64,000 nucleotides of DNA, from assembly GCF_024223415.1 (NCBI RefSeq), contig NZ_CP100501.1, one strand, 5' to 3'. Positions 1 to 8,435 of the stretch are shown in pieces (position 1 is the first letter of the stretch; every line of letters begins with the position of its first letter). The position numbers and the translations under genes were made by a program. The notes below the pieces were generated by a model, which saw nothing but the letters and a program-made list of their open reading frames with translations, had not been told where the DNA came from and did no database searches. Origin of the DNA: Escherichia coli (GTDB taxonomy: Bacteria > Pseudomonadota > Gammaproteobacteria > Enterobacterales > Enterobacteriaceae).

Positions 1-2
1 CG

Positions 3-233
3 ACAAAAGCAAACTTCTTCGGACACCTGAAAAAGCCACAAATTATCGCAGCCCTGAATGAGGCCGGACTGTCCGGTGCCGCACGGGACGCGGAGAAGAT
101 GAAGAAAGGTGATGCGGCTGAACATGCAGAGCACCATATGAAAGACAACCGCTGGGTTCCAGGCTGGATGTGTGCACCACATCCACAGACAGATGCCACT
201 GAACGCACCGATAACCTGGCTGATGCCGCCTGA
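3..233 (+). CDS. 3' end of an upstream leading-region gene (5' part outside window); product not recognised
   Basis: Open frame runs from the window edge to TGA at 231-233 (about 76 codons, no stop), same strand as psiB; absent from ORF track because there is no in-window start. Confidence 0.3.
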   Translation, partial: TKANFFGHLKKPQIIAALNEAGLSGAARDAEKMKKGDAAEHAEHHMKDNRWVPGWMCAPHPQTDATERTDNLADAA

Positions 234-287
234 TGAACAACCACACCGCCCCGCCGGAGACGGGGCGGCAGCAAGGGAGATACCGTG

Positions 288-722
288 ATGAAAACTGAAC
301 TGACCCTGAATGCCCTGCAGTCCATGAACGCACAGGAATATGAAGATATCCGTGCTGCGGGAAGCGATATGCGCCGTAATCTCACTCACGAGGTGATGCG
401 TGAAGTGGACGCACCGGCTAACTGGATGATGAATGGCGAGTATGGCAGTGAGTTCGGGGGCTTTTTCCCCGTCCAGGTTCGTTTCACGCCAGCCCACGAA
501 CGTTTCCACCTGGCATTATGTTCGCCGGGAGACGTCTCTCAGCTCTGGATGCTGGTTCTGGTGAGTGGTGGTGGACAGCCTTTCGCCGTCGTTCAGGTGC
601 AACATATCTTCACGCCTGTCGCGATCAGTCACACGCTGGCGCTCGCCGCGACACTTGATGCGCAGGGATACAGTGTTAACGACATCATTCATATTTTGAT
701 GGCAGAAGGAGGTCAGGCATGA
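288..722 (+). CDS. psiB: PsiB, plasmid SOS-inhibition protein (RecA inhibitor)
   Basis: About 144 aa starting [25 protein letters not shown], which matches PsiB of F/IncI leading regions from memory; SD AAGGGAGA upstream; 4-bp overlap with the following psiA-like gene. Confidence 0.85.
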
Positions 723-1438
723 GCGCACGTTCACGGGCACTGATCCCCCTCAGCGCAGAACAACAGGCCGCTATGCAGGCTGTGGCTGTCACCGAACAAC
801 GTCGTCGTCAGGGACGCACACTTTCAGCATGGCCTTATGCCACCGCTTTCTTTCGCTGCCTGAATGGCAGTCGCCGGATTTCGCTGACCGATCTCCGCTT
901 TTTTGCCCCTGCGCTGACGAAGGAGGAATTTCATGGCAACCGTCTCCTGTGGCTGGCTGCAGTGGACAAACTGATTGAAAGTTTTGGTGAAGTCTGTGTT
1001 CTTCCCCTGCCATCCGATGCGGGGCATCGTTTGTTCCCGTCCGTTCCTTTTCGTGAAGGTGAGCGGCGTCGTCAGAAAACCACGCTGACAGAGCAGAAAT
1101 ACAGCCGCCAGCGGGAACGTGAGGCAGAACGACGGGAACGGGAATACCAGACATGTTTTGCTCAGGCGCAGATTGACCTTGCGTTTCATACTCCCGCCAC
1201 GGTCGGAAGCTGGTTGTCCCGCTGGTCTGGTGTTGTTGAGGAGCATGATCTGGAAACGATTTTCTGGGGGTGGTGCGGGCGTTTTCCATCACTGTCATCA
1301 TTTGACCGGTTTTTCTGGCAGGAGGAACCACTCTGGCGGTTGATTTTTGAAGCCGGTGAGGCCGGTCGTGGTGCACCGGTACAGGTACGTGCACTTGAGC
1401 AGTGGATGATCCCGAACAAGCTGGAGAACGTAATATGA
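719..1438 (+). CDS. psiA: PsiA, plasmid SOS-inhibition protein A
   Basis: 239 aa, the canonical PsiA length; N-terminus [18 protein letters not shown]; translationally coupled to psiB. Confidence 0.8.
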
Positions 1439-2031
1439 TGAAATCAGACGAAAAATACCAGGTTCCCGCGTGGATGCGACCTCTGTTGCCGTTGCTCTGC
1501 AACACCGGGGAGAACGATCCGGAAGAACTGCTGAATGATACAGAAACCACTGCCAGTGCGAATGTTGTCCGTTATGTGCTGATAGTTGCTGTGCGGTCGC
1601 AGGTTGATCTGCTGCAGCTTCTGTACAGGAAAGGGCTGTTGCGCACAGAGATACCAGGTGGCTTTTCACCGGAAGAAGCGCAGGAACTCCTGGATAATCT
1701 GGTGCGCAGCCATATCAGCAGGGCGCTGTCGGGTGAGCGAATGGCAGCCCGTGACAGGAATGCCGATCTGGCCTGGATTCGACAGCAACTGGTCGATGCC
1801 GCCTGGTTTGTCCGTGCCACACTGGAAGCGCATGGGATGAGCGTCGGAAATGAGAGTCCCCCTGCTCAGCCGGAGACAATGCCGGACATACAGACACGGG
1901 AACTGGTGATGTTGATCAAGCGACTGGCATCATCGCTGAAAGCGGTGAAACCGGACAGTTGTGTGGTGCGTGAAGCGCAGGACTGGCTGCGCGACAGAAA
2001 ACTTGTGAGCATCACGGATGTTCTTCGGTGA
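1435..2031 (+). CDS. hypothetical leading-region protein (198 aa)
   Basis: ATGATG overlap with psiA stop; same strand as leading-region operon; no recognisable domain. Confidence 0.5.
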   Translation: MMKSDEKYQVPAWMRPLLPLLCNTGENDPEELLNDTETTASANVVRYVLIVAVRSQVDLLQLLYRKGLLRTEIPGGFSPEEAQELLDNLVRSHISRALSGERMAARDRNADLAWIRQQLVDAAWFVRATLEAHGMSVGNESPPAQPETMPDIQTRELVMLIKRLASSLKAVKPDSCVVREAQDWLRDRKLVSITDVLR

Positions 2032-2495
2032 ACCAGTGGAGGTATGCTTGAGGAGCAGGGACATGCCGGTCATGATCGTTTCGTTCCAGGGGTGGTCTGG
2101 AGATCATGCGGCGTGTCCTCTGCACTCGCCGGAATAAGGACGTCGCCGCCGGCTCCGCTTTTACCCGGCCATGCGGGGCATGGCCTTGTGGGTTTTCAGC
2201 TCTGTGGCCTCAGCGTCGTGTGCGGGCTGTGCCGTGCCTCCATCGTAGCCGGGCTTCTGCGGGCGGGATGCAAGGTAAGATGAACCGCTGCGGTCACCCG
2301 GTCCCTCCTTCCCGTCTGCCGTGATTTTCCGGTCGTTCACCCGCTCAGATTTCGCGGTCTCACCCTCCAACTCCCGTCAGCCGTGCGCGTCGGGCTGCGG
2401 CTTTCCTTGCGCCCTTGCATCCCTGCAGGCCCGGCAAAGATGGAGGCACGGCACCGCCCGGTGTCGCAGAACATGTGACTATGGAGGATTCGGGA

Positions 2496-2996
2496 ATGTC
2501 TGTTGTTGCACCTGCTGTATACGTTGGAACCTGGCACAAATATAACTGCGGAAGCATCGCCGGCCGCTGGTTTGACCTGACCACGTTTGATGATGAACGC
2601 GATTTTTTCGCCGCCTGCCGTGCCCTTCACCAGGATGAAACCGATCCGGAACTGATGTTTCAGGATTATGAGGGTTTCCCGGGGAATATGGCCTCTGAAT
2701 GTCATATCAACTGGGCCTGGGTTGAAGGCTTCCGCCGGGCACGGGATGAAGGCTGCGAAGAGGCTTATCGTCTCTGGGTGGATGATACCGGTGAGACGGA
2801 TTTTGACAGCTTCCGCGATGCCTGGTGGGGCGAGGCTGACAGTGAGGAGGCTTTTGCGGTTGAGTTCGTCAGTGATACCGGCCTGCTGGCTGACGTGCCG
2901 GAGACGGTGGCGCTCTATTTTGACTATGAGGCGTATGCGCGGGATTTATTCCTGGACTCCTTCACCTTTATTGACGGTCATGTGTTCCGTCGGTGA
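2496..2996 (+). CDS. ardA: ArdA antirestriction protein (DNA mimic, anti type I R-M)
   Basis: 166 aa, MSVVAPAVYVGTWHKYNCGSIAGRWFDLTTFDDERDFFAACRALHQDE; acidic C-terminal half typical of ArdA; preceded by ~460 bp of GC-rich untranslated leader. Confidence 0.9.
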   Translation: MSVVAPAVYVGTWHKYNCGSIAGRWFDLTTFDDERDFFAACRALHQDETDPELMFQDYEGFPGNMASECHINWAWVEGFRRARDEGCEEAYRLWVDDTGETDFDSFRDAWWGEADSEEAFAVEFVSDTGLLADVPETVALYFDYEAYARDLFLDSFTFIDGHVFRR

Positions 2997-3348
2997 TTTA
3001 CTCCCCCGCTCCGGCGGGGGTATGGCCTGCCGGGCCGCCGGAAAACCCTGGCAGGCTTACGCCTGCCTGAAATACAGGAGGGCCGCGCCTGCGGCGCTGC
3101 CCTTCCTGCCCGTCATGGTGTGAGGCATTTTTCTGTTTTGTCGTTTCTGTTGTTCTGATGCCCGGAGGCGGGGACACCCTTCGGCTCCCGGCTGCCTGGC
3201 GGCATCCGGTCGTCGGCCCGACTCCGACAGGCAGCTGCTGGCGCACCCGCCAGTCTCCGCCGAACCCGCTGGCGCGGTTTCGGGCTGCCGCTACGGTCCG
3301 ATGTCTGAAAAACCAGGCCTGCAGCGACCGTTCCGGTCGCGCCGCCCC

Positions 3349-3675
3349 TGTCGCGCCGGAAACGGCGCTCCCTGCACACCTGACGGTGTGTAAGGCCACT
3401 GCGCCTGATGGCGCAGTCAACCCTTCCGCCGCCACCCCTGCGGCCTGTTTCCCGCTGTGGACTTTCCGGGGGCTGAAGCGGCCACAACACGGGGCAGCCG
3501 TCCAGGGGAGAGATGTACCAGCCACAAAACTTTTTGCCGCAGGCGTCAAAAACTTTTGCGTCTGCCCCCGGACAACTGCCCCGTGCCGTGGCAGTCGCTG
3601 CCCCATCGGAAAGGTCCACTGCGGGGAGAAACCCCGAAGAAGTGGACGGCAGAAGGGGCTTTCGCCCCTCCGGGG
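3349..3675 (+). promoter_or_regulatory. Frpo/ssi-like single-strand promoter repeat, copy A
   Basis: About 330 bp GC-rich non-coding segment, near-identical to 6214-6543 (more than 80 bp identical around ccaggggagagatgtaccagccacaaaactttttgccgcaggcgtcaaaaacttttgcgtctgcccccggacaactgccccgtg); ends about 50 bp before the start codon at 3725. Confidence 0.55.
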
Positions 3676-3724
3676 GAGCAACCGGTCGGCCCGGCGACCT
3701 GATTCAGCAGAAGGAGACGTTTTC

Positions 3725-4159
3725 ATGACAGTCAGCAGCACGATTTCCGTTTTTTGCCGAGACGGGGTGTTCCGTACCGTTTACTGCCACCTGCACGGTG
3801 AGCCGACCTGGAACGGTCGCATCCTGCATACCCACTATGCCACCGGTCAGCTGGCCGAAGCCCTGGTTGAACACGGAGATATCCGTTGCCTCGGTCCCCG
3901 TTGCGACAAACCCGCCGGGCATACGCTTCAGAACCCGGTGGACGGTGTGACGGCTTATTACGGACGTGACAGTGGTTTCCGGATGGACAGTGAGGCGCGT
4001 GAGTACCGTTCTTTCAGGGAGGCTATTGCCACTGAAAGCACTGAAGAGGTGCGCTTCCATTATGTGTTCATCGACGGCTACTGGAAGGTGATGTACCGCA
4101 CGCCGGAAGGCTGGAAGATGAAAGCGCTCGCGCTGGCACTGCGTCGCTGTCCGGAATGA
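3725..4159 (+). CDS. hypothetical protein (144 aa), first gene downstream of promoter repeat A
   Basis: ATG at 3725 with GGAGACG SD-like sequence; MTVSSTISVFCRDGVFRTVYCHLHGEPTWNG; no recognised domain. Confidence 0.6.
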   Translation: MTVSSTISVFCRDGVFRTVYCHLHGEPTWNGRILHTHYATGQLAEALVEHGDIRCLGPRCDKPAGHTLQNPVDGVTAYYGRDSGFRMDSEAREYRSFREAIATESTEEVRFHYVFIDGYWKVMYRTPEGWKMKALALALRRCPE

Positions 4160-4250
4160 AAAAAAGCAGGGCGATAAACCCTGCCTCTCTCCGCCGCTGC
4201 TTCCCGGCCAGGAAGAGCGGCAGTCATCAACAACATAAGGAGAAATATTT

Positions 4251-4517
4251 GTGAGACCATCAATTATCTTCGCAACCGCCGAGTATGTAAAGCGTCTGCG
4301 TGAAGAGTGCCTGCGGGAGAATAAACCCCTGCACCGCCATACCCGCTTCAGACGTCAGGAGCTGGCACAGGATGAGATTAACCCGGACGTCCTGGCGATG
4401 AGCGGTCATATCGCCAGACGCTGCAGTGAGCAGAAGCGGGTGCGTATCCCCGCCATGAAAGTCAGCGAATGGGGCCACCTGCTCCGCGCGCTTGAAATTG
4501 AACGGGTCTGTCACTGA
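4251..4517 (+). CDS. hypothetical protein (88 aa, GTG start)
   Basis: AAGGAG SD 8 nt before GTG; lies between the 144-aa gene and rpn. Confidence 0.45.
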   Translation: MRPSIIFATAEYVKRLREECLRENKPLHRHTRFRRQELAQDEINPDVLAMSGHIARRCSEQKRVRIPAMKVSEWGHLLRALEIERVCH

Positions 4518-4581
4518 TTAACCCTTGCCGTCTGCCTGTGCAGGCGGCAGGATACGTTCAGACATCTCACCAGGAGGAACC

Positions 4582-5460
4582 GTGAGTAAGAAGAAAAACA
4601 CCACAACGCCCACGCCGCATGATGCCGCGTTCCGGTCGTTCCTGGCGAATCCCGACGTTGCCAGGGATTTTCTGGAGTTGCATCTTCCTGCGGAGTACCG
4701 GCAGTTGTGCGACCTGTCCACCCTGAAGCTGGAACCCGCCACCTTTGTTGAGCCGGACCTGCATCAGTACGCCAGCGATATCCTCTGGAGTGTGAAAACC
4801 ACCGGGGGTGAAGACGGCTATGTTTATACGCTCATCGAGCACCAGAGCACCGAAAATCTGTACATGCCTTTTCGCATGTTACGTTACAGTGTGGCGGCGA
4901 TGCAGAGACATCTGGAGCAGCACAAAACGTTGCCACTGGTCATTCCGGTGCTGTTCTATCACGGTGAGCGCAGCCCGTACCCGTACAGCATGAACTGGCT
5001 GGACTGTTTTGAGAATCCGGCACTTGCGGCTAAAATATACACAAAGCCGTTTCCGCTGGTTGATATCACTGTCGTTGATGACAATGAAATCATGAACCAT
5101 CGCCGGATGGCCGCACTGACGCTGCTGATGAAGCATATCCGCCATCGTGACATGATGGAGCTGCTGGACAAACTCCCGCAGGTCATGGTGGAAATTTCAG
5201 ACGAGCAGGTGCGTGTTCTGATTCATTACATCGTTAACGCAGGGGACACTGTATCACCGGAATTTATGCGGGCGCTGGCCGAGCGCCTGCCGCAGCATGA
5301 GGATAAACTGATGACAATCGCAGAACGTCTTGAGCAGAAAGGTGCGCTTGAAAAAGCCCTGGCCATTGCGCGTCAGCTTCAGAAAATGGGGATGACACCT
5401 GAGCAGATTAAGCAGGCCACCGGACTTTCCGAAGCTGAACTGAAAAAAGTCATTCACTGA
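4582..5460 (+). CDS. rpn: Rpn family recombination-promoting nuclease (YhgA-like PD-(D/E)XK)
   Basis: AGGAGG SD then GTG; HDAAFRSFLANPDVARDFLELHLPAEYRQLCDLSTLKLE and FYHGERSPYPYS motifs as in E. coli RpnA-E; C-terminal tail MTIAERLEQKG...TGLSEAELKK. Confidence 0.8.
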   Translation: MSKKKNTTTPTPHDAAFRSFLANPDVARDFLELHLPAEYRQLCDLSTLKLEPATFVEPDLHQYASDILWSVKTTGGEDGYVYTLIEHQSTENLYMPFRMLRYSVAAMQRHLEQHKTLPLVIPVLFYHGERSPYPYSMNWLDCFENPALAAKIYTKPFPLVDITVVDDNEIMNHRRMAALTLLMKHIRHRDMMELLDKLPQVMVEISDEQVRVLIHYIVNAGDTVSPEFMRALAERLPQHEDKLMTIAERLEQKGALEKALAIARQLQKMGMTPEQIKQATGLSEAELKKVIH

Positions 5461-5474
5461 TGAGAGCATCACAG

Positions 5475-5498
5475 CCCGGCAAAATGCCGGGCTTTTTG
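5475..5498 (+). terminator. rho-independent terminator-like hairpin after rpn
   Basis: cccggcaaaatgccggg followed by cttttt. Confidence 0.45.
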
Positions 5499-5521
5499 CC
5501 AGCAGGAGCAGAGCAAACAGC

Positions 5522-5728
5522 ATGACGATTGCAGAACGTCTTATACAGAAAGGTTTCGACGAGGGTTTTAAAGAAGGTTTTAAAGAAGGTTTTAAACAAG
5601 GAGCTCTTGAAGTGGCGCGGGAAATAGCCTGCCGGCTTCGGGATATAGGCTGGTCGCCGGAACGGATTCAGGAGGTCACGGGACTTTCCGGTGAAGAACT
5701 GAAAAAGCTGTTTCCTGATGAGCAGTAG
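5522..5728 (+). CDS. stand-alone small protein resembling the Rpn C-terminal domain (RpnS-like), 68 aa
   Basis: MTIAERLIQKG...ALEVAREIACRL...TGLSGEELKK aligns with the last ~49 aa of the upstream Rpn protein; contains three 12-bp tandem repeats encoding EGFK (5561-5596). Confidence 0.55.
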   Translation: MTIAERLIQKGFDEGFKEGFKEGFKQGALEVAREIACRLRDIGWSPERIQEVTGLSGEELKKLFPDEQ

Positions 5729-5758
5729 CCTGGCATTCAGCCAGGCTGTGAATCACGC

Positions 5759-6010
5759 TCACACATCCTCTGCCGTTTCCCCCAGTTCATTTTCCAGTCG
5801 CCTGATGATATCTGCCTTACGCATCCCCTGCATGTGAGGCAGCAGGTCACGGACTGAAAGTGCCTGGGTGGTCCTCCAGACGGTGACGTCCACCTGTTCC
5901 GCATTTTCCCAGGCGTGCCATGTTCTCTGCGTCACGCCAAATTCTCTGGCCGCTTTTTCGCGTGACCAGAGCATGCTTTTTCGCCAGATTCGCAGTTCCC
6001 ATCCGGTCAT
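5759..6010 (-). CDS. small helix-turn-helix DNA-binding protein (83 aa)
   Basis: AREFGVTQRTWHAWE HTH-like motif; divergent from promoter repeat B; palindromic sites in its upstream region. Confidence 0.55.
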   Translation of the reverse strand: MTGWELRIWRKSMLWSREKAAREFGVTQRTWHAWENAEQVDVTVWRTTQALSVRDLLPHMQGMRKADIIRRLENELGETAEDV

Positions 6011-6025
6011 AAAACACCTTTGAAA

Positions 6026-6111
6026 AAGTGAAAAAACTTCACTTTATTTTATCATCACAATTGCCAAATCAGCGCGATAAATAAGTGTAAAAAAGTGAAG
6101 AAATTTCACTT
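6026..6111. promoter_or_regulatory. two palindromic operator-like sites, AAGTGAA-N5-TTCACTT
   Basis: aagtgaaaaaacttcactt at 6026-6044 and aagtgaagaaatttcactt at 6093-6111, in the intergenic region between the HTH gene and promoter repeat B. Confidence 0.4.
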
Positions 6112-6213
6112 TTTTTGGTTGTAAATGTCGTGCGGTTTTCTCTGTTTTCACCTGTGCGGGAGTGGTGTGCCAGTGACCACCACATGCCATTGTTGTGCCG
6201 TCGTTTTTCTTCA

Positions 6214-6543
6214 GTCGCGCCGGATGCGGCGCTCCCTGCACACCTTACGGTGTGTAAGGCCACTGCGCCTGATGGCGCAGCTGCCTCTGCCTGTCTGCCG
6301 CCGCACTGCGGCCTGTTCTCCGCAGACGGACTTTCCGGGGGTACATACACGACCACATCCCGTTTCAGTCGTCCAGGGGAGAGATGTACCAGCCACAAAA
6401 CTTTTTGCCGCAGGCGTCAAAAACTTTTGCGTCTGCCCCCGGACAACTGCCCCGTGACGTGGTGAGCGTCCCCCGTCGGAAAGGTCCACTGCGGGGAAAT
6501 CCCCGAAGACCCGGACGGCAGAAGGAGCTTCGCTCCTCCGGGA
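6214..6543 (+). promoter_or_regulatory. Frpo/ssi-like single-strand promoter repeat, copy B
   Basis: Near-identical to 3349-3675; ends about 45 bp before the start codon at 6587. Confidence 0.55.
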
Positions 6544-6586
6544 AATGACCTGGCTGACCCGGCAGTCGTGACGATGAGGAGACAAT

Positions 6587-7438
6587 GTGATGAATCAGAC
6601 TTTACCCACTGCTGACCTGAATACTGCCGGCACGACAGATGTTATTCCGTCTGTGGCTATCGACCGCATCATCGCGCAGCGTAACGAAGGTATTGCACTG
6701 TTCATGCAGGCGATGGAATGCCTGGCGACAGCGCGCAGGATTCTGCTCGATGCTTCCGGTGACATTTTTCTCTACGGGTTTGAAGACTGCGTGACTGACT
6801 CCGTTCGATGCATGGATAAACCGGAAGAAGCGAAAAGGAATATCACCCGTCTTGCCGACCGGAAAATCTGGGACCGCCTGATGACAGATACGGGCATGTA
6901 CACCTTCATGAGTTCATGCCAGCGTGATGAGTGGAACAGCCAGCTGATGAGCGACACCTGTCCTGAAATCACCCTGGACAATGTACTGGCAACATTCCGC
7001 CATCTTAATGCCAGCAAGATGCAGACATTTGAACAGGGACTGATTGATGTCTACCGGAAATTGTCATGGGATTACAGAACCAATAATCCCTGCCGTCTGG
7101 GCAAGAAAATCATTATTGAAAACCTGCTGTACCGCTGGAGTAACGGGCGTGTGACGCTGGACTGCAGCAGACGGGAGGCACTGGATGACCTGGTACGTCC
7201 GTTTTATCTGCTGGAGGGGCGCAACGTTCCTGACTTCAGGAACAGCATCGGGGCGCAGTATGGTGAATTTCTCAGGAACGGCGACAATGTCGGTAAGTTG
7301 TTAGAAGGGGAATATTTTACGGTGCGTGGCTACCAGAAAGGGACCGTACACATTGTCTTTAAGCGTTCTGACCTTGTTGAAAAACTGAATGATATTATTG
7401 CACGGCATTATCCTGGTGCATTGCCGCCACGAGTCTGA
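6587..7438 (+). CDS. hypothetical protein (283 aa), first gene downstream of promoter repeat B
   Basis: GGAGACA SD-like then ATGATG; no catalytic motif recognised; followed by a hairpin terminator. Confidence 0.6.
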   Translation: MMNQTLPTADLNTAGTTDVIPSVAIDRIIAQRNEGIALFMQAMECLATARRILLDASGDIFLYGFEDCVTDSVRCMDKPEEAKRNITRLADRKIWDRLMTDTGMYTFMSSCQRDEWNSQLMSDTCPEITLDNVLATFRHLNASKMQTFEQGLIDVYRKLSWDYRTNNPCRLGKKIIIENLLYRWSNGRVTLDCSRREALDDLVRPFYLLEGRNVPDFRNSIGAQYGEFLRNGDNVGKLLEGEYFTVRGYQKGTVHIVFKRSDLVEKLNDIIARHYPGALPPRV

Positions 7439-7448
7439 TTAAACAGAA

Positions 7449-7481
7449 AAGCCCTGGTATTTATGCCGGGGCTTTTTTTTC
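7449..7481. terminator. hairpin plus T-run, likely bidirectional terminator
   Basis: aagccc...gggctt stem followed by tttttttt between convergent genes. Confidence 0.5.
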
Positions 7482-7523
7482 TGTAATCATCATAATCTCA
7501 GAACACGATGTGACATTGTCACA

Positions 7524-7865
7524 TCAATTGTTGTTCATATCGATGCCATCTTTCCTGCCTGAATCTGTCTTTTTAGGTGCTGTTTTAGAGGAAGAACGGC
7601 GGGATGTTTTTTTCGATTCTGCTTCCCGAATAATGTCACGAAGTGCCTTCTCTCCTACTTCATACCCTGCATTTTTGAGCGTGTCACGAATATCTGCCAG
7701 TGTATAACCCTTTGTCCTTACCAGGACAATAATGTCATCACGAATGGCATCAAGAAAATCACGCAATGTTTTCCGTTGAGCGGTGAGATCTGGCAATTCC
7801 GATAAAGCAGCTTTTGCCAGCTGGATGTCATCATCTGAGTAAAATTTTTTAGAAGCCATTGGCAC
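7524..7865 (-). CDS. hypothetical oriT-proximal protein (about 111 aa) with basic C-terminus
   Basis: MASKKFYSDDDIQLAKAALSELPDL...; lysine/serine-rich C-terminal tail; transcribed away from oriT. Confidence 0.5.
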   Translation of the reverse strand: MPMASKKFYSDDDIQLAKAALSELPDLTAQRKTLRDFLDAIRDDIIVLVRTKGYTLADIRDTLKNAGYEVGEKALRDIIREAESKKTSRRSSSKTAPKKTDSGRKDGIDMNNN

Positions 7866-7989
7866 TTTCTCTCCGTTTAATCTTGAAGCCTGATTTTATC
7901 ATCAAAAACTGACTCCTGGCAGGGCTGCGCCCTGCCTCTGCCGTCTGCATAAGACTATGATGCACAAAAATAACAGGCTATAATGGCAT

Positions 7990-8090
7990 GAAAAACGGGA
8001 CAGGATGTGTAATCGTATAACCGCGCACGCACGGCTATACGATTACCACCTGGTCAGGGCTTAGCCCCGACACCCCGGTAAGGAGCAGAC
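7990..8090. other. origin of transfer (oriT) region
   Basis: Intergenic region immediately upstream of nikA with 11-bp inverted repeat gtaatcgtata (8009-8019) / tatacgattac (8036-8046); nick position not determinable by eye. Confidence 0.55.
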
Positions 8091-8091
8091 C

Positions 8092-8424
8092 ATGAGTGAG
8101 AAGAAAACCCGAAGTGGCAGTGAGAAACGGCAAAAGAATGTCCTCATTGCTGTTCGTTTTTCACCAGAAGAGGCTGAGATTGTTAAAGAAAAGGCAGAAA
8201 AAAACGGACTGACAGTTTCAACTCTGATAAGAAAAACTGTGCTGGGAAAACAGATAAATGCCCGCATTGATGAAGATTTTTTGAAAGAGCTGATGCGTCT
8301 TGGTCGCCTGCAGAAGCATCTGTTTGTGGAAGGAAAACGCACGGGAGATAAAGAGTATGCAGAGGTTCTCGTTGCTATTACAGAACTTGCTAATACTCTG
8401 CGAAGAGATTTAATGGGACGCTGA
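8092..8424 (+). CDS. nikA: NikA relaxosome accessory protein (ribbon-helix-helix)
   Basis: 110 aa; NGLTVSTLIRKTVLGKQIN...FLKELMRLGRLQKHLFVEGKRTGDKEYAEVLVAITE as in IncI1 NikA. Confidence 0.85.
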   Translation: MSEKKTRSGSEKRQKNVLIAVRFSPEEAEIVKEKAEKNGLTVSTLIRKTVLGKQINARIDEDFLKELMRLGRLQKHLFVEGKRTGDKEYAEVLVAITELANTLRRDLMGR

Positions 8425-8435
8425 GATAATCGCTG

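Follow-up and report, generated by a model that had tools for sequence, protein, structure and literature searches.

A DUF4942-family gene facing oriT in an I-complex conjugative plasmid is a candidate early-expressed accessory of plasmid establishment

The window analyzed here, the whole stretch of 64,000 nucleotides (64 kb), is part of an I-complex conjugative plasmid in which one of the genes facing oriT encodes a member of the DUF4942 family. This protein is an accessory and not a core transfer function, and our preferred interpretation, which we hold with middling confidence, is that it is an early-expressed, DNA-directed accessory for establishment or anti-restriction. The gene is already known, both as a sequence (R64, pESBL) and as a catalogued family. 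In the survey of Samuel et al. (2024) DUF4942 is family #24 of those enriched in leading regions, with 2171 members described as “Uncharacterized; DUF4942,” a median position of 1 from oriT and a T-strand-compatible strand value of +1; similarity to known anti-restriction or anti-CRISPR proteins is given there as “NA” for all 2171. The locus is present in about 1900–2000 PLSDB/sequenced plasmids. It ranks among the most widespread of the uncharacterized plasmid-entry genes, and knowledge of its function would inform how IncI and IncF resistance plasmids become established in new hosts. A full-text literature search returned incidental mentions only and no functional test of any DUF4942 protein.

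The plus strand from position 6587 to 7438 is one unbroken ORF, listed at 283 aa when read from GTG 6587. In the RefSeq annotations of near-identical plasmids (pOV-CH82 and R64) the CDS starts at the ATG corresponding to position 6590 and has 849 nt and 282 codons for amino acids, and this ATG is preceded by a Shine-Dalgarno sequence (Table 1). The ORF is a real gene. We judge it to be real and constrained because its product matches Pfam DUF4942 (PF13708; E 2.4e-52, residues 91–276 against model positions 5–189 of 190), because relatives of the product number 3149 at the level of 50%-identity clusters across plasmids, islands and phages, and because the codon differences between it and its R64 homolog (97.5% amino acid identity) are mostly synonymous (20 synonymous and seven non-synonymous). 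Twelve bases past the stop codon, between the convergent DUF4942 and yggA genes, begins the hairpin of an intrinsic terminator with an RNA fold of -25.7 kcal/mol (z = -7.28). A simple terminator scan made no call at this site, and it was direct folding that revealed it.

A sequence-only reading had described the gene as encoding a 283-aa unknown protein with a good start context and a terminator immediately downstream, and had placed it as the first gene after promoter repeat B and the last leading-region gene before oriT. The start context, the terminator and the repeat were all borne out, as was the ORF itself, at 282 aa from the ATG. The word “unknown” did not survive the Pfam match and the catalogued homologs (YgfB/YdiA/Hp22), and “last” is correct only for genes readable from the transferred strand, as the gene that is literally last is yggA, which sits between DUF4942 and oriT and is not transcribable from that strand.

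Table 1. Features of the DUF4942 locus and its surroundings, in window coordinates.
Feature	Position	Strand	Details
DUF4942-family CDS (YgfB/YdiA/pESBL Hp22 homolog)	6590..7438	+	282 aa from ATG; alternative start GTG 6587 gives 283 aa
Shine-Dalgarno GAGGAG	6576..6581	+	8 nt 5' of ATG 6590; read from the sequence
Intrinsic terminator	7451..7480		GC-rich hairpin 7451–7472 and T8 tract 7473–7480; A-run on the opposite side
Repeat copy B, Frpo/ssi class-1-like	6190..6560	-	core hairpin 6327–6488, 162 nt, 62 pairs, on the transferred (-) strand
Repeat copy A	3350..3674	-	upstream of the 144-aa gene/88-aa gene/Rpn operon
Two palindromes AGTGAA-N5-TTCACT	6027–6043 and 6094–6110		perfect, 17 bp, 67 bp apart
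yggA/Hp23 homolog	7524..7862	-	112 aa; from the ORF list; same arrangement in pESBL and R64
oriT core	~8003..8076		inverted repeats and conserved CTGGTCAGGGCTT.GCCCCGACACCC block; directly 5' of nikA (8092–8424), then nikB

The confident AlphaFold model of the protein matches only DUF4942 members in the PDB and AFDB, with the top AFDB50 matches all belonging to this family; no relative of the predicted fold was detected beyond DUF4942, and the fold provides no mechanistic clue. In agreement with the sequence-only reading, no catalytic motif was recognized: the protein has no methyltransferase motifs and no match to an enzyme fold or motif. NCBIfam holds no family for it, a PDB sequence profile search gave only noise (E ~0.2), and PADLOC gave no defense-system match, with only a partial hit to a 2TM effector model (16 bits, E 0.0012, 37 residues). 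Comparison with ArdA, ArdB/KlcA, ArdC, Ocr and Acr showed neither sequence nor structural similarity. The pI of the protein is near neutral (6.3), unlike that of a typical DNA binder.

Alignment of 58 diverse members, including fused forms, identified a set of invariant or near-invariant polar residues: D90, W94, S159, Y162, N165, D200, R203, D215, H254, and N267. The standalone protein of the window keeps all of the family-invariant residues (W94, D200, L201, H254, and N267). Polar residues this strongly conserved speak against a target-recognition domain of the variable kind, and leave room for a conserved binding site or a catalytic activity.

The leading genes point toward oriT, and because of this the minus strand is the transferred strand. 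The DUF4942 gene also points toward oriT, with the transferred strand as its template, and directly upstream of it is repeat copy B, whose long hairpin is formed on that strand. As single-stranded DNA, copy B has a predicted fold of -104.5 kcal/mol on the transferred strand, compared to -69.9 kcal/mol for shuffled sequences (z = -7.45); -35 and -10 boxes in the stem of this hairpin were not identified with confidence. Copies A and B of the ~330-nt repeat are 85% identical, and copy B is 79–82% identical to two copies in R64, one of which is directly upstream of ssb. For the IncI1 plasmid pESBL, a published study (PMC12672017) describes six leading-region operons whose induction reaches ~500-fold in the first 15 minutes after transfer. 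Each of them sits behind a hairpin, and three of the hairpins are ssi1-3/Frpo-like (class 1). The copy B hairpin agrees with that study's description of these class 1 Frpo-like single-strand promoters, IncI1 ssi1-3, and based on its position behind an ssi copy we infer that DUF4942 would be induced on entry.

At a threshold of E <= 1e-5, the leading region of the F plasmid has a single stretch similar to copy B (74% over 118 nt; L007 19756–19866, record ~63755–63865). Downstream of this stretch is the oriT-proximal operon whose last gene is DUF932 (orf273), an arrangement consistent with a Frpo copy near oriT that drives the gene in DUF4942's place. We also considered whether F carries DUF4942 and rejected this, as the gene is not in the stretch of the F leading region that was examined and DUF932 occupies that place.

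The 6000–8100 stretch of the window matches 2248 PLSDB records, the best match being an IncK2/Z plasmid with 98.8% identity, while R64 matches at 92%. In R64 and IncI plasmids the same gene has the same neighbors, in the order HTH gene, ssi repeat, DUF4942, yggA, oriT, and nikAB. We placed oriT by eye through comparison of the window with the R64 stretch upstream of nikA, and the oriT of pESBL is annotated at the same place. The inverted repeats of oriT are GTAATCGTATA...TATACGATTAC in the window versus GCAATTGTAATA...TATTACAATTGC in R64, with the adjoining CTGGTCAGGGCTT.GCCCCGACACCC block kept. The window plasmid is an IncK2/Z-like I-complex variant whose oriT repeat has diverged from that of R64, and the diverged repeats suggest that its NikA may have a binding specificity other than that of IncI1. 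The product of yggA has no Pfam or NCBIfam match, and its RefSeq name ([quoted passage not shown]) looks mislabeled; yggA/Hp23 was non-essential for transfer in the pESBL Tn-seq.

Between the minus-strand Xre-type HTH gene (5759–6010, HTH_31 match) and the ssi repeat and DUF4942 are two palindromes of the form AGTGAA-N5-TTCACT, the only two matches to this pattern in 64 kb (0.18 expected), and a sigma70-like site at 6028–6055 overlaps the first of them. They are candidate operators for the divergent HTH regulator, and, judging from the sequence, suggest that a repressor-controlled double-strand promoter may exist alongside the single-strand one, which would add a second level of control.

Several other genes of the leading region deserve mention. 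Behind ssi copy A are two small genes at 3725–4159 (144 aa) and 4251–4517 (+, 88 aa), neither of which has a family match. They correspond by size and order to pMS7163B_00810 and 00820, and overexpression of gene 810 of pMS7163B was reported to impair host growth (PMC10286972). The same region contains a gene for an Rpn-family (Transposase_31, PD-(D/E)XK) recombination-promoting nuclease at 4525/4542–5460 (+), and Rpn is also leading-region-enriched in the survey of Samuel et al. (2024; families 18 and 20). By synteny with pOV-CH82 and R64, positions 1–~200 (+) of the window appear to lie inside a gene for a 652-aa ParB-like leading-region protein, the F homolog of which, YfjB, has been renamed HerB and reprograms host transcription (PMC13370423). 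Identity of the DUF4942 protein with YfjB/HerB was considered and rejected, as HerB is the 652-aa ParB-like protein whose homolog is at the start of the window. A search of positions 1–12000 against Rfam gave no match.

Published functional data come from two saturating transposon screens, and in both the DUF4942 gene could be lost without impairing conjugation from one E. coli K-12 strain to another. In the pESBL screen, Hp22 (68947–69795) was scored 1.00 as non-essential and 0.00 as required for transfer. In the other, pMS7163B_00760, an 849-bp gene of an I-complex plasmid located beside yggA and nikA, had a log2FC of +1.02 after conjugation, with insertions not depleted. In these two screens nikA, nikB and oriT were scored as required, and a core transfer or relaxosome role for DUF4942 is ruled out by the data. 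The pESBL assay is, however, insensitive to establishment functions, because ardA, klcA, psiB, and ssb were likewise non-essential in it, and for the same reason the dispensability of DUF4942 weakens but does not refute an establishment role. The sequence-only reading had proposed the gene as a candidate establishment or anti-defense factor, and this remains plausible for a family already flagged as a leading-region one by Samuel et al. (2024). Its orientation, ssi repeat, ranking in that survey, neighborhoods and phage fusions are in favor, and its dispensability in K-12 matings is against. Based on the transposon data, a phenotype must be sought in recipients that are natural or defense-proficient, and redundant anti-restriction genes would probably have to be deleted as well.

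The neighborhoods of other standalone copies have a recurrent theme. In the leading region of another MOBP plasmid (L003), about 8 kb from the relaxase, DUF4942 is accompanied by SSB and PsiA, by an antirestriction gene and by an orphan N6_N4 methylase. In an F-like Pantoea plasmid, DUF4942 is just 5' of the SLT gene and traM; in F-type plasmids, oriT lies before these genes. Across 80 genome loci, mainly enterobacterial chromosomes, DUF4942 closes a module encoded on a single strand, with the order GTPase, DUF932, Antirestrict, RadC, DUF987, CbeA, CbtA, sometimes DUF5983, and then DUF4942. The recurrent gene clusters in the 20-kb neighborhoods of the chromosomal islands include no conserved relaxase. 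More distant copies are beside a Toprim primase and RadC, overlap RadC, or adjoin a prophage integrase.

DUF4942 is a domain confined to mobile elements, and is mostly standalone among the relatives surveyed. Residues 20–280 of the window protein also align whole with longer, fused proteins that have the same invariant residues. In such relatives (P0166, P0227, P0236, P0247, and P0249) DUF4942 is followed by a compact domain with EPSAG (motif I) and NPPF (motif IV), which together are a signature of N6-adenine methylases. Among 118 classified relatives of P0247, 84 have the order DUF4942 then methyltransferase and one has the reverse. The DUF4942 domain is found in 64 phage records, and PHROG profile searches matched the window protein to phage families that include PHROG 6263, “DNA methyltransferase” (548 residues), the N-terminal half of which is the part matched. 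The fused methylase module in turn matches PHROG giant-protein families, one of which is labeled DarB-like antirestriction, and relatives of this module also carry a ParB domain (PF02195).

Three contexts of fused genes were examined, and none of them contained a restriction enzyme as partner: a prophage early region after dnaB, a site directly downstream of a Mom-family DNA-modification gene whose stop is overlapped by the fusion, and a site near DpdA and a C5 methylase. In Marinomonas phage P12026 the fusion (gp32) is the first gene of an early operon, and in Pseudomonas phage MR15 it is within a methylase cluster. In a Brevundimonas contig (RHWX01000014.1; L094 7168–9383) a Mom-family gene overlaps the start of a DUF4942-methyltransferase fusion by one base, and from this arrangement the pair looks like a two-enzyme DNA-modification operon. 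The pair adjoins a QatB/QueC/TatD (Qat-like) defense cluster and a mercury-resistance transposon. We also considered a nearby methylase as a partner for standalone copies and rejected it: an HMM of the fused methylase domain gave a strong match in one of 91 standalone loci and none within the window. With a methylase of the fused type almost never nearby, partnership in trans cannot be a general rule.

That DUF4942 is repeatedly fused to orphan adenine methylases, where related enzymes have ParB or LPD36, suggests that it has a DNA-directed role, and these fusions together with the RadC and antirestriction neighborhoods point to DNA protection. Under our preferred interpretation, the plasmid would enter the recipient single-stranded, the host RNA polymerase would fire from the hairpin, and the DUF4942 protein would be among the first made, before a complementary strand exists. 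The domain would then act on or with the incoming DNA, as the theme of protective DNA modification and anti-restriction in its fusions and neighborhoods leads us to expect. The standalone form probably retains the domain's own activity without a covalently attached methylase, because all of the family-invariant residues are kept; this activity could be the binding of DNA, of a conserved ligand or of a partner, or some form of catalysis.

A bolder proposal, which we consider unlikely but worth stating, is that DUF4942 is a new restriction-evasion module with its own biochemistry, one that marks or alters the incoming DNA or redirects a methylase onto the unmodified invader. The redirected methylase might be the fused partner, or the host type I modification complex or Dam, with an outcome analogous to that of lambda Ral. 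If this is true, the standalone copies in leading regions would be the first plasmid protein made to disarm restriction, and the invariant D, H, N, and W residues, the fold without relatives, position 1 in thousands of leading regions and the phage fusions would all be accounted for.

Of the other explanations, the one that survives best is that the protein has no DNA role and is an inhibitor that binds a specific host defense protein, as a decoy or blocker like ArdA, Ocr and the anti-CRISPRs. Position 1 of the leading region, the early-promoter context, the co-location with antirestriction genes and the presence in plasmids, islands and phages are all as expected for such an inhibitor, and the strongly conserved polar residues, which are of a surface type, could form its protein-binding site. 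We nevertheless consider it improbable, since the protein resembled none of the known anti-restriction or anti-CRISPR proteins in sequence or structure in the comparisons above, the gene is dispensable for entry into EcoKI-type K-12 recipients, and a DNA-directed role is the easier explanation for the recurrent fusion to DNA methyltransferases.

Ranked below the inhibitor, and doubtful, is an enzyme of a new kind that would act on DNA, nucleotides or a host factor and would constitute a second catalytic domain in the fusions. Invariant polar residues in this pattern are what active sites typically show and target-recognition domains typically do not, and fused genes occur beside those of other DNA-modifying enzymes, Mom and DpdA. 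However, the protein matched no enzyme family by fold or by motif, and the conserved residues could equally be structural or part of an interface.

We regard as very improbable an accessory role in the relaxosome or in oriT processing, such as nicking, T-strand recircularization or priming. The location beside oriT in IncI and F-like plasmids, along with the family's median position, would be consistent with such a role, but the gene was not required for transfer in either transposon screen, it is far from the relaxase in L003, and it is fused to methyltransferases, not to relaxase or primase domains. Its presence in phages, and in islands that have no conserved relaxase nearby, also argues against any function specific to oriT or a relaxase. 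Least credible of all is that the protein is itself a DNA methyltransferase, as it is called in UniProt and depositor names (“Methyltransferase,” “Restriction methylase”), since these names stem from the fused relatives, whose EPSAG and NPPF motifs are in a separate C-terminal domain, whereas the 282-aa protein matches PF13708 alone and no methyltransferase domain in Pfam even at E <= 10, has no (D/N/S)PP(Y/F/W) or glycine-rich SAM motif in a motif search (motifs I and IV of the N6-adenine enzymes are both absent), is predicted to be mainly helical with few short strands and without the alternating strand-helix pattern of a Rossmann fold, and has no methyltransferase among the fold matches listed.

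DUF4942 can be compared with several known systems. ArdA, KlcA/ArdB, PsiB, and M.EcoGIX are encoded in the same region and the same orientation as DUF4942, all of them behind single-strand promoters of the hairpin type; Frpo/ssi class 1 corresponds to the promoter at DUF4942 and classes 2 and 3 to those at ardA, klcA, and M.EcoGIX. These characterized anti-defense genes differ from the DUF4942 candidate in that they have demonstrated activity, and they share no sequence or fold similarity with it. A closer counterpart by position is DUF932 (the F orf273/YubP family), which is also uncharacterized, has a median position of 1 from oriT and holds the equivalent slot in F; the two families are unrelated in sequence, although they co-occur in CP4-like islands.

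The phage and integrative fusions (PHROG 6263, P12026 gp32, P0247, and P0166) are similar to the window protein in being carried by invaders and in their early or entry-proximal position, and differ from it in that the window protein ends where the fusions run on into the EPSAG...NPPF catalytic domain. Adenine methylases of mobile elements are known to carry interchangeable N-terminal accessory modules (Iyer et al., 2017; PMC5512222). DUF4942 differs from the LPDs described in that work in not being among them and in being usually standalone, but where it is fused it takes the same N-terminal slot on a minimal adenine methylase as LPD36 does in the DarB-like polyvalent proteins and as ParB does in the ParB-methylases (Iyer et al., 2017).
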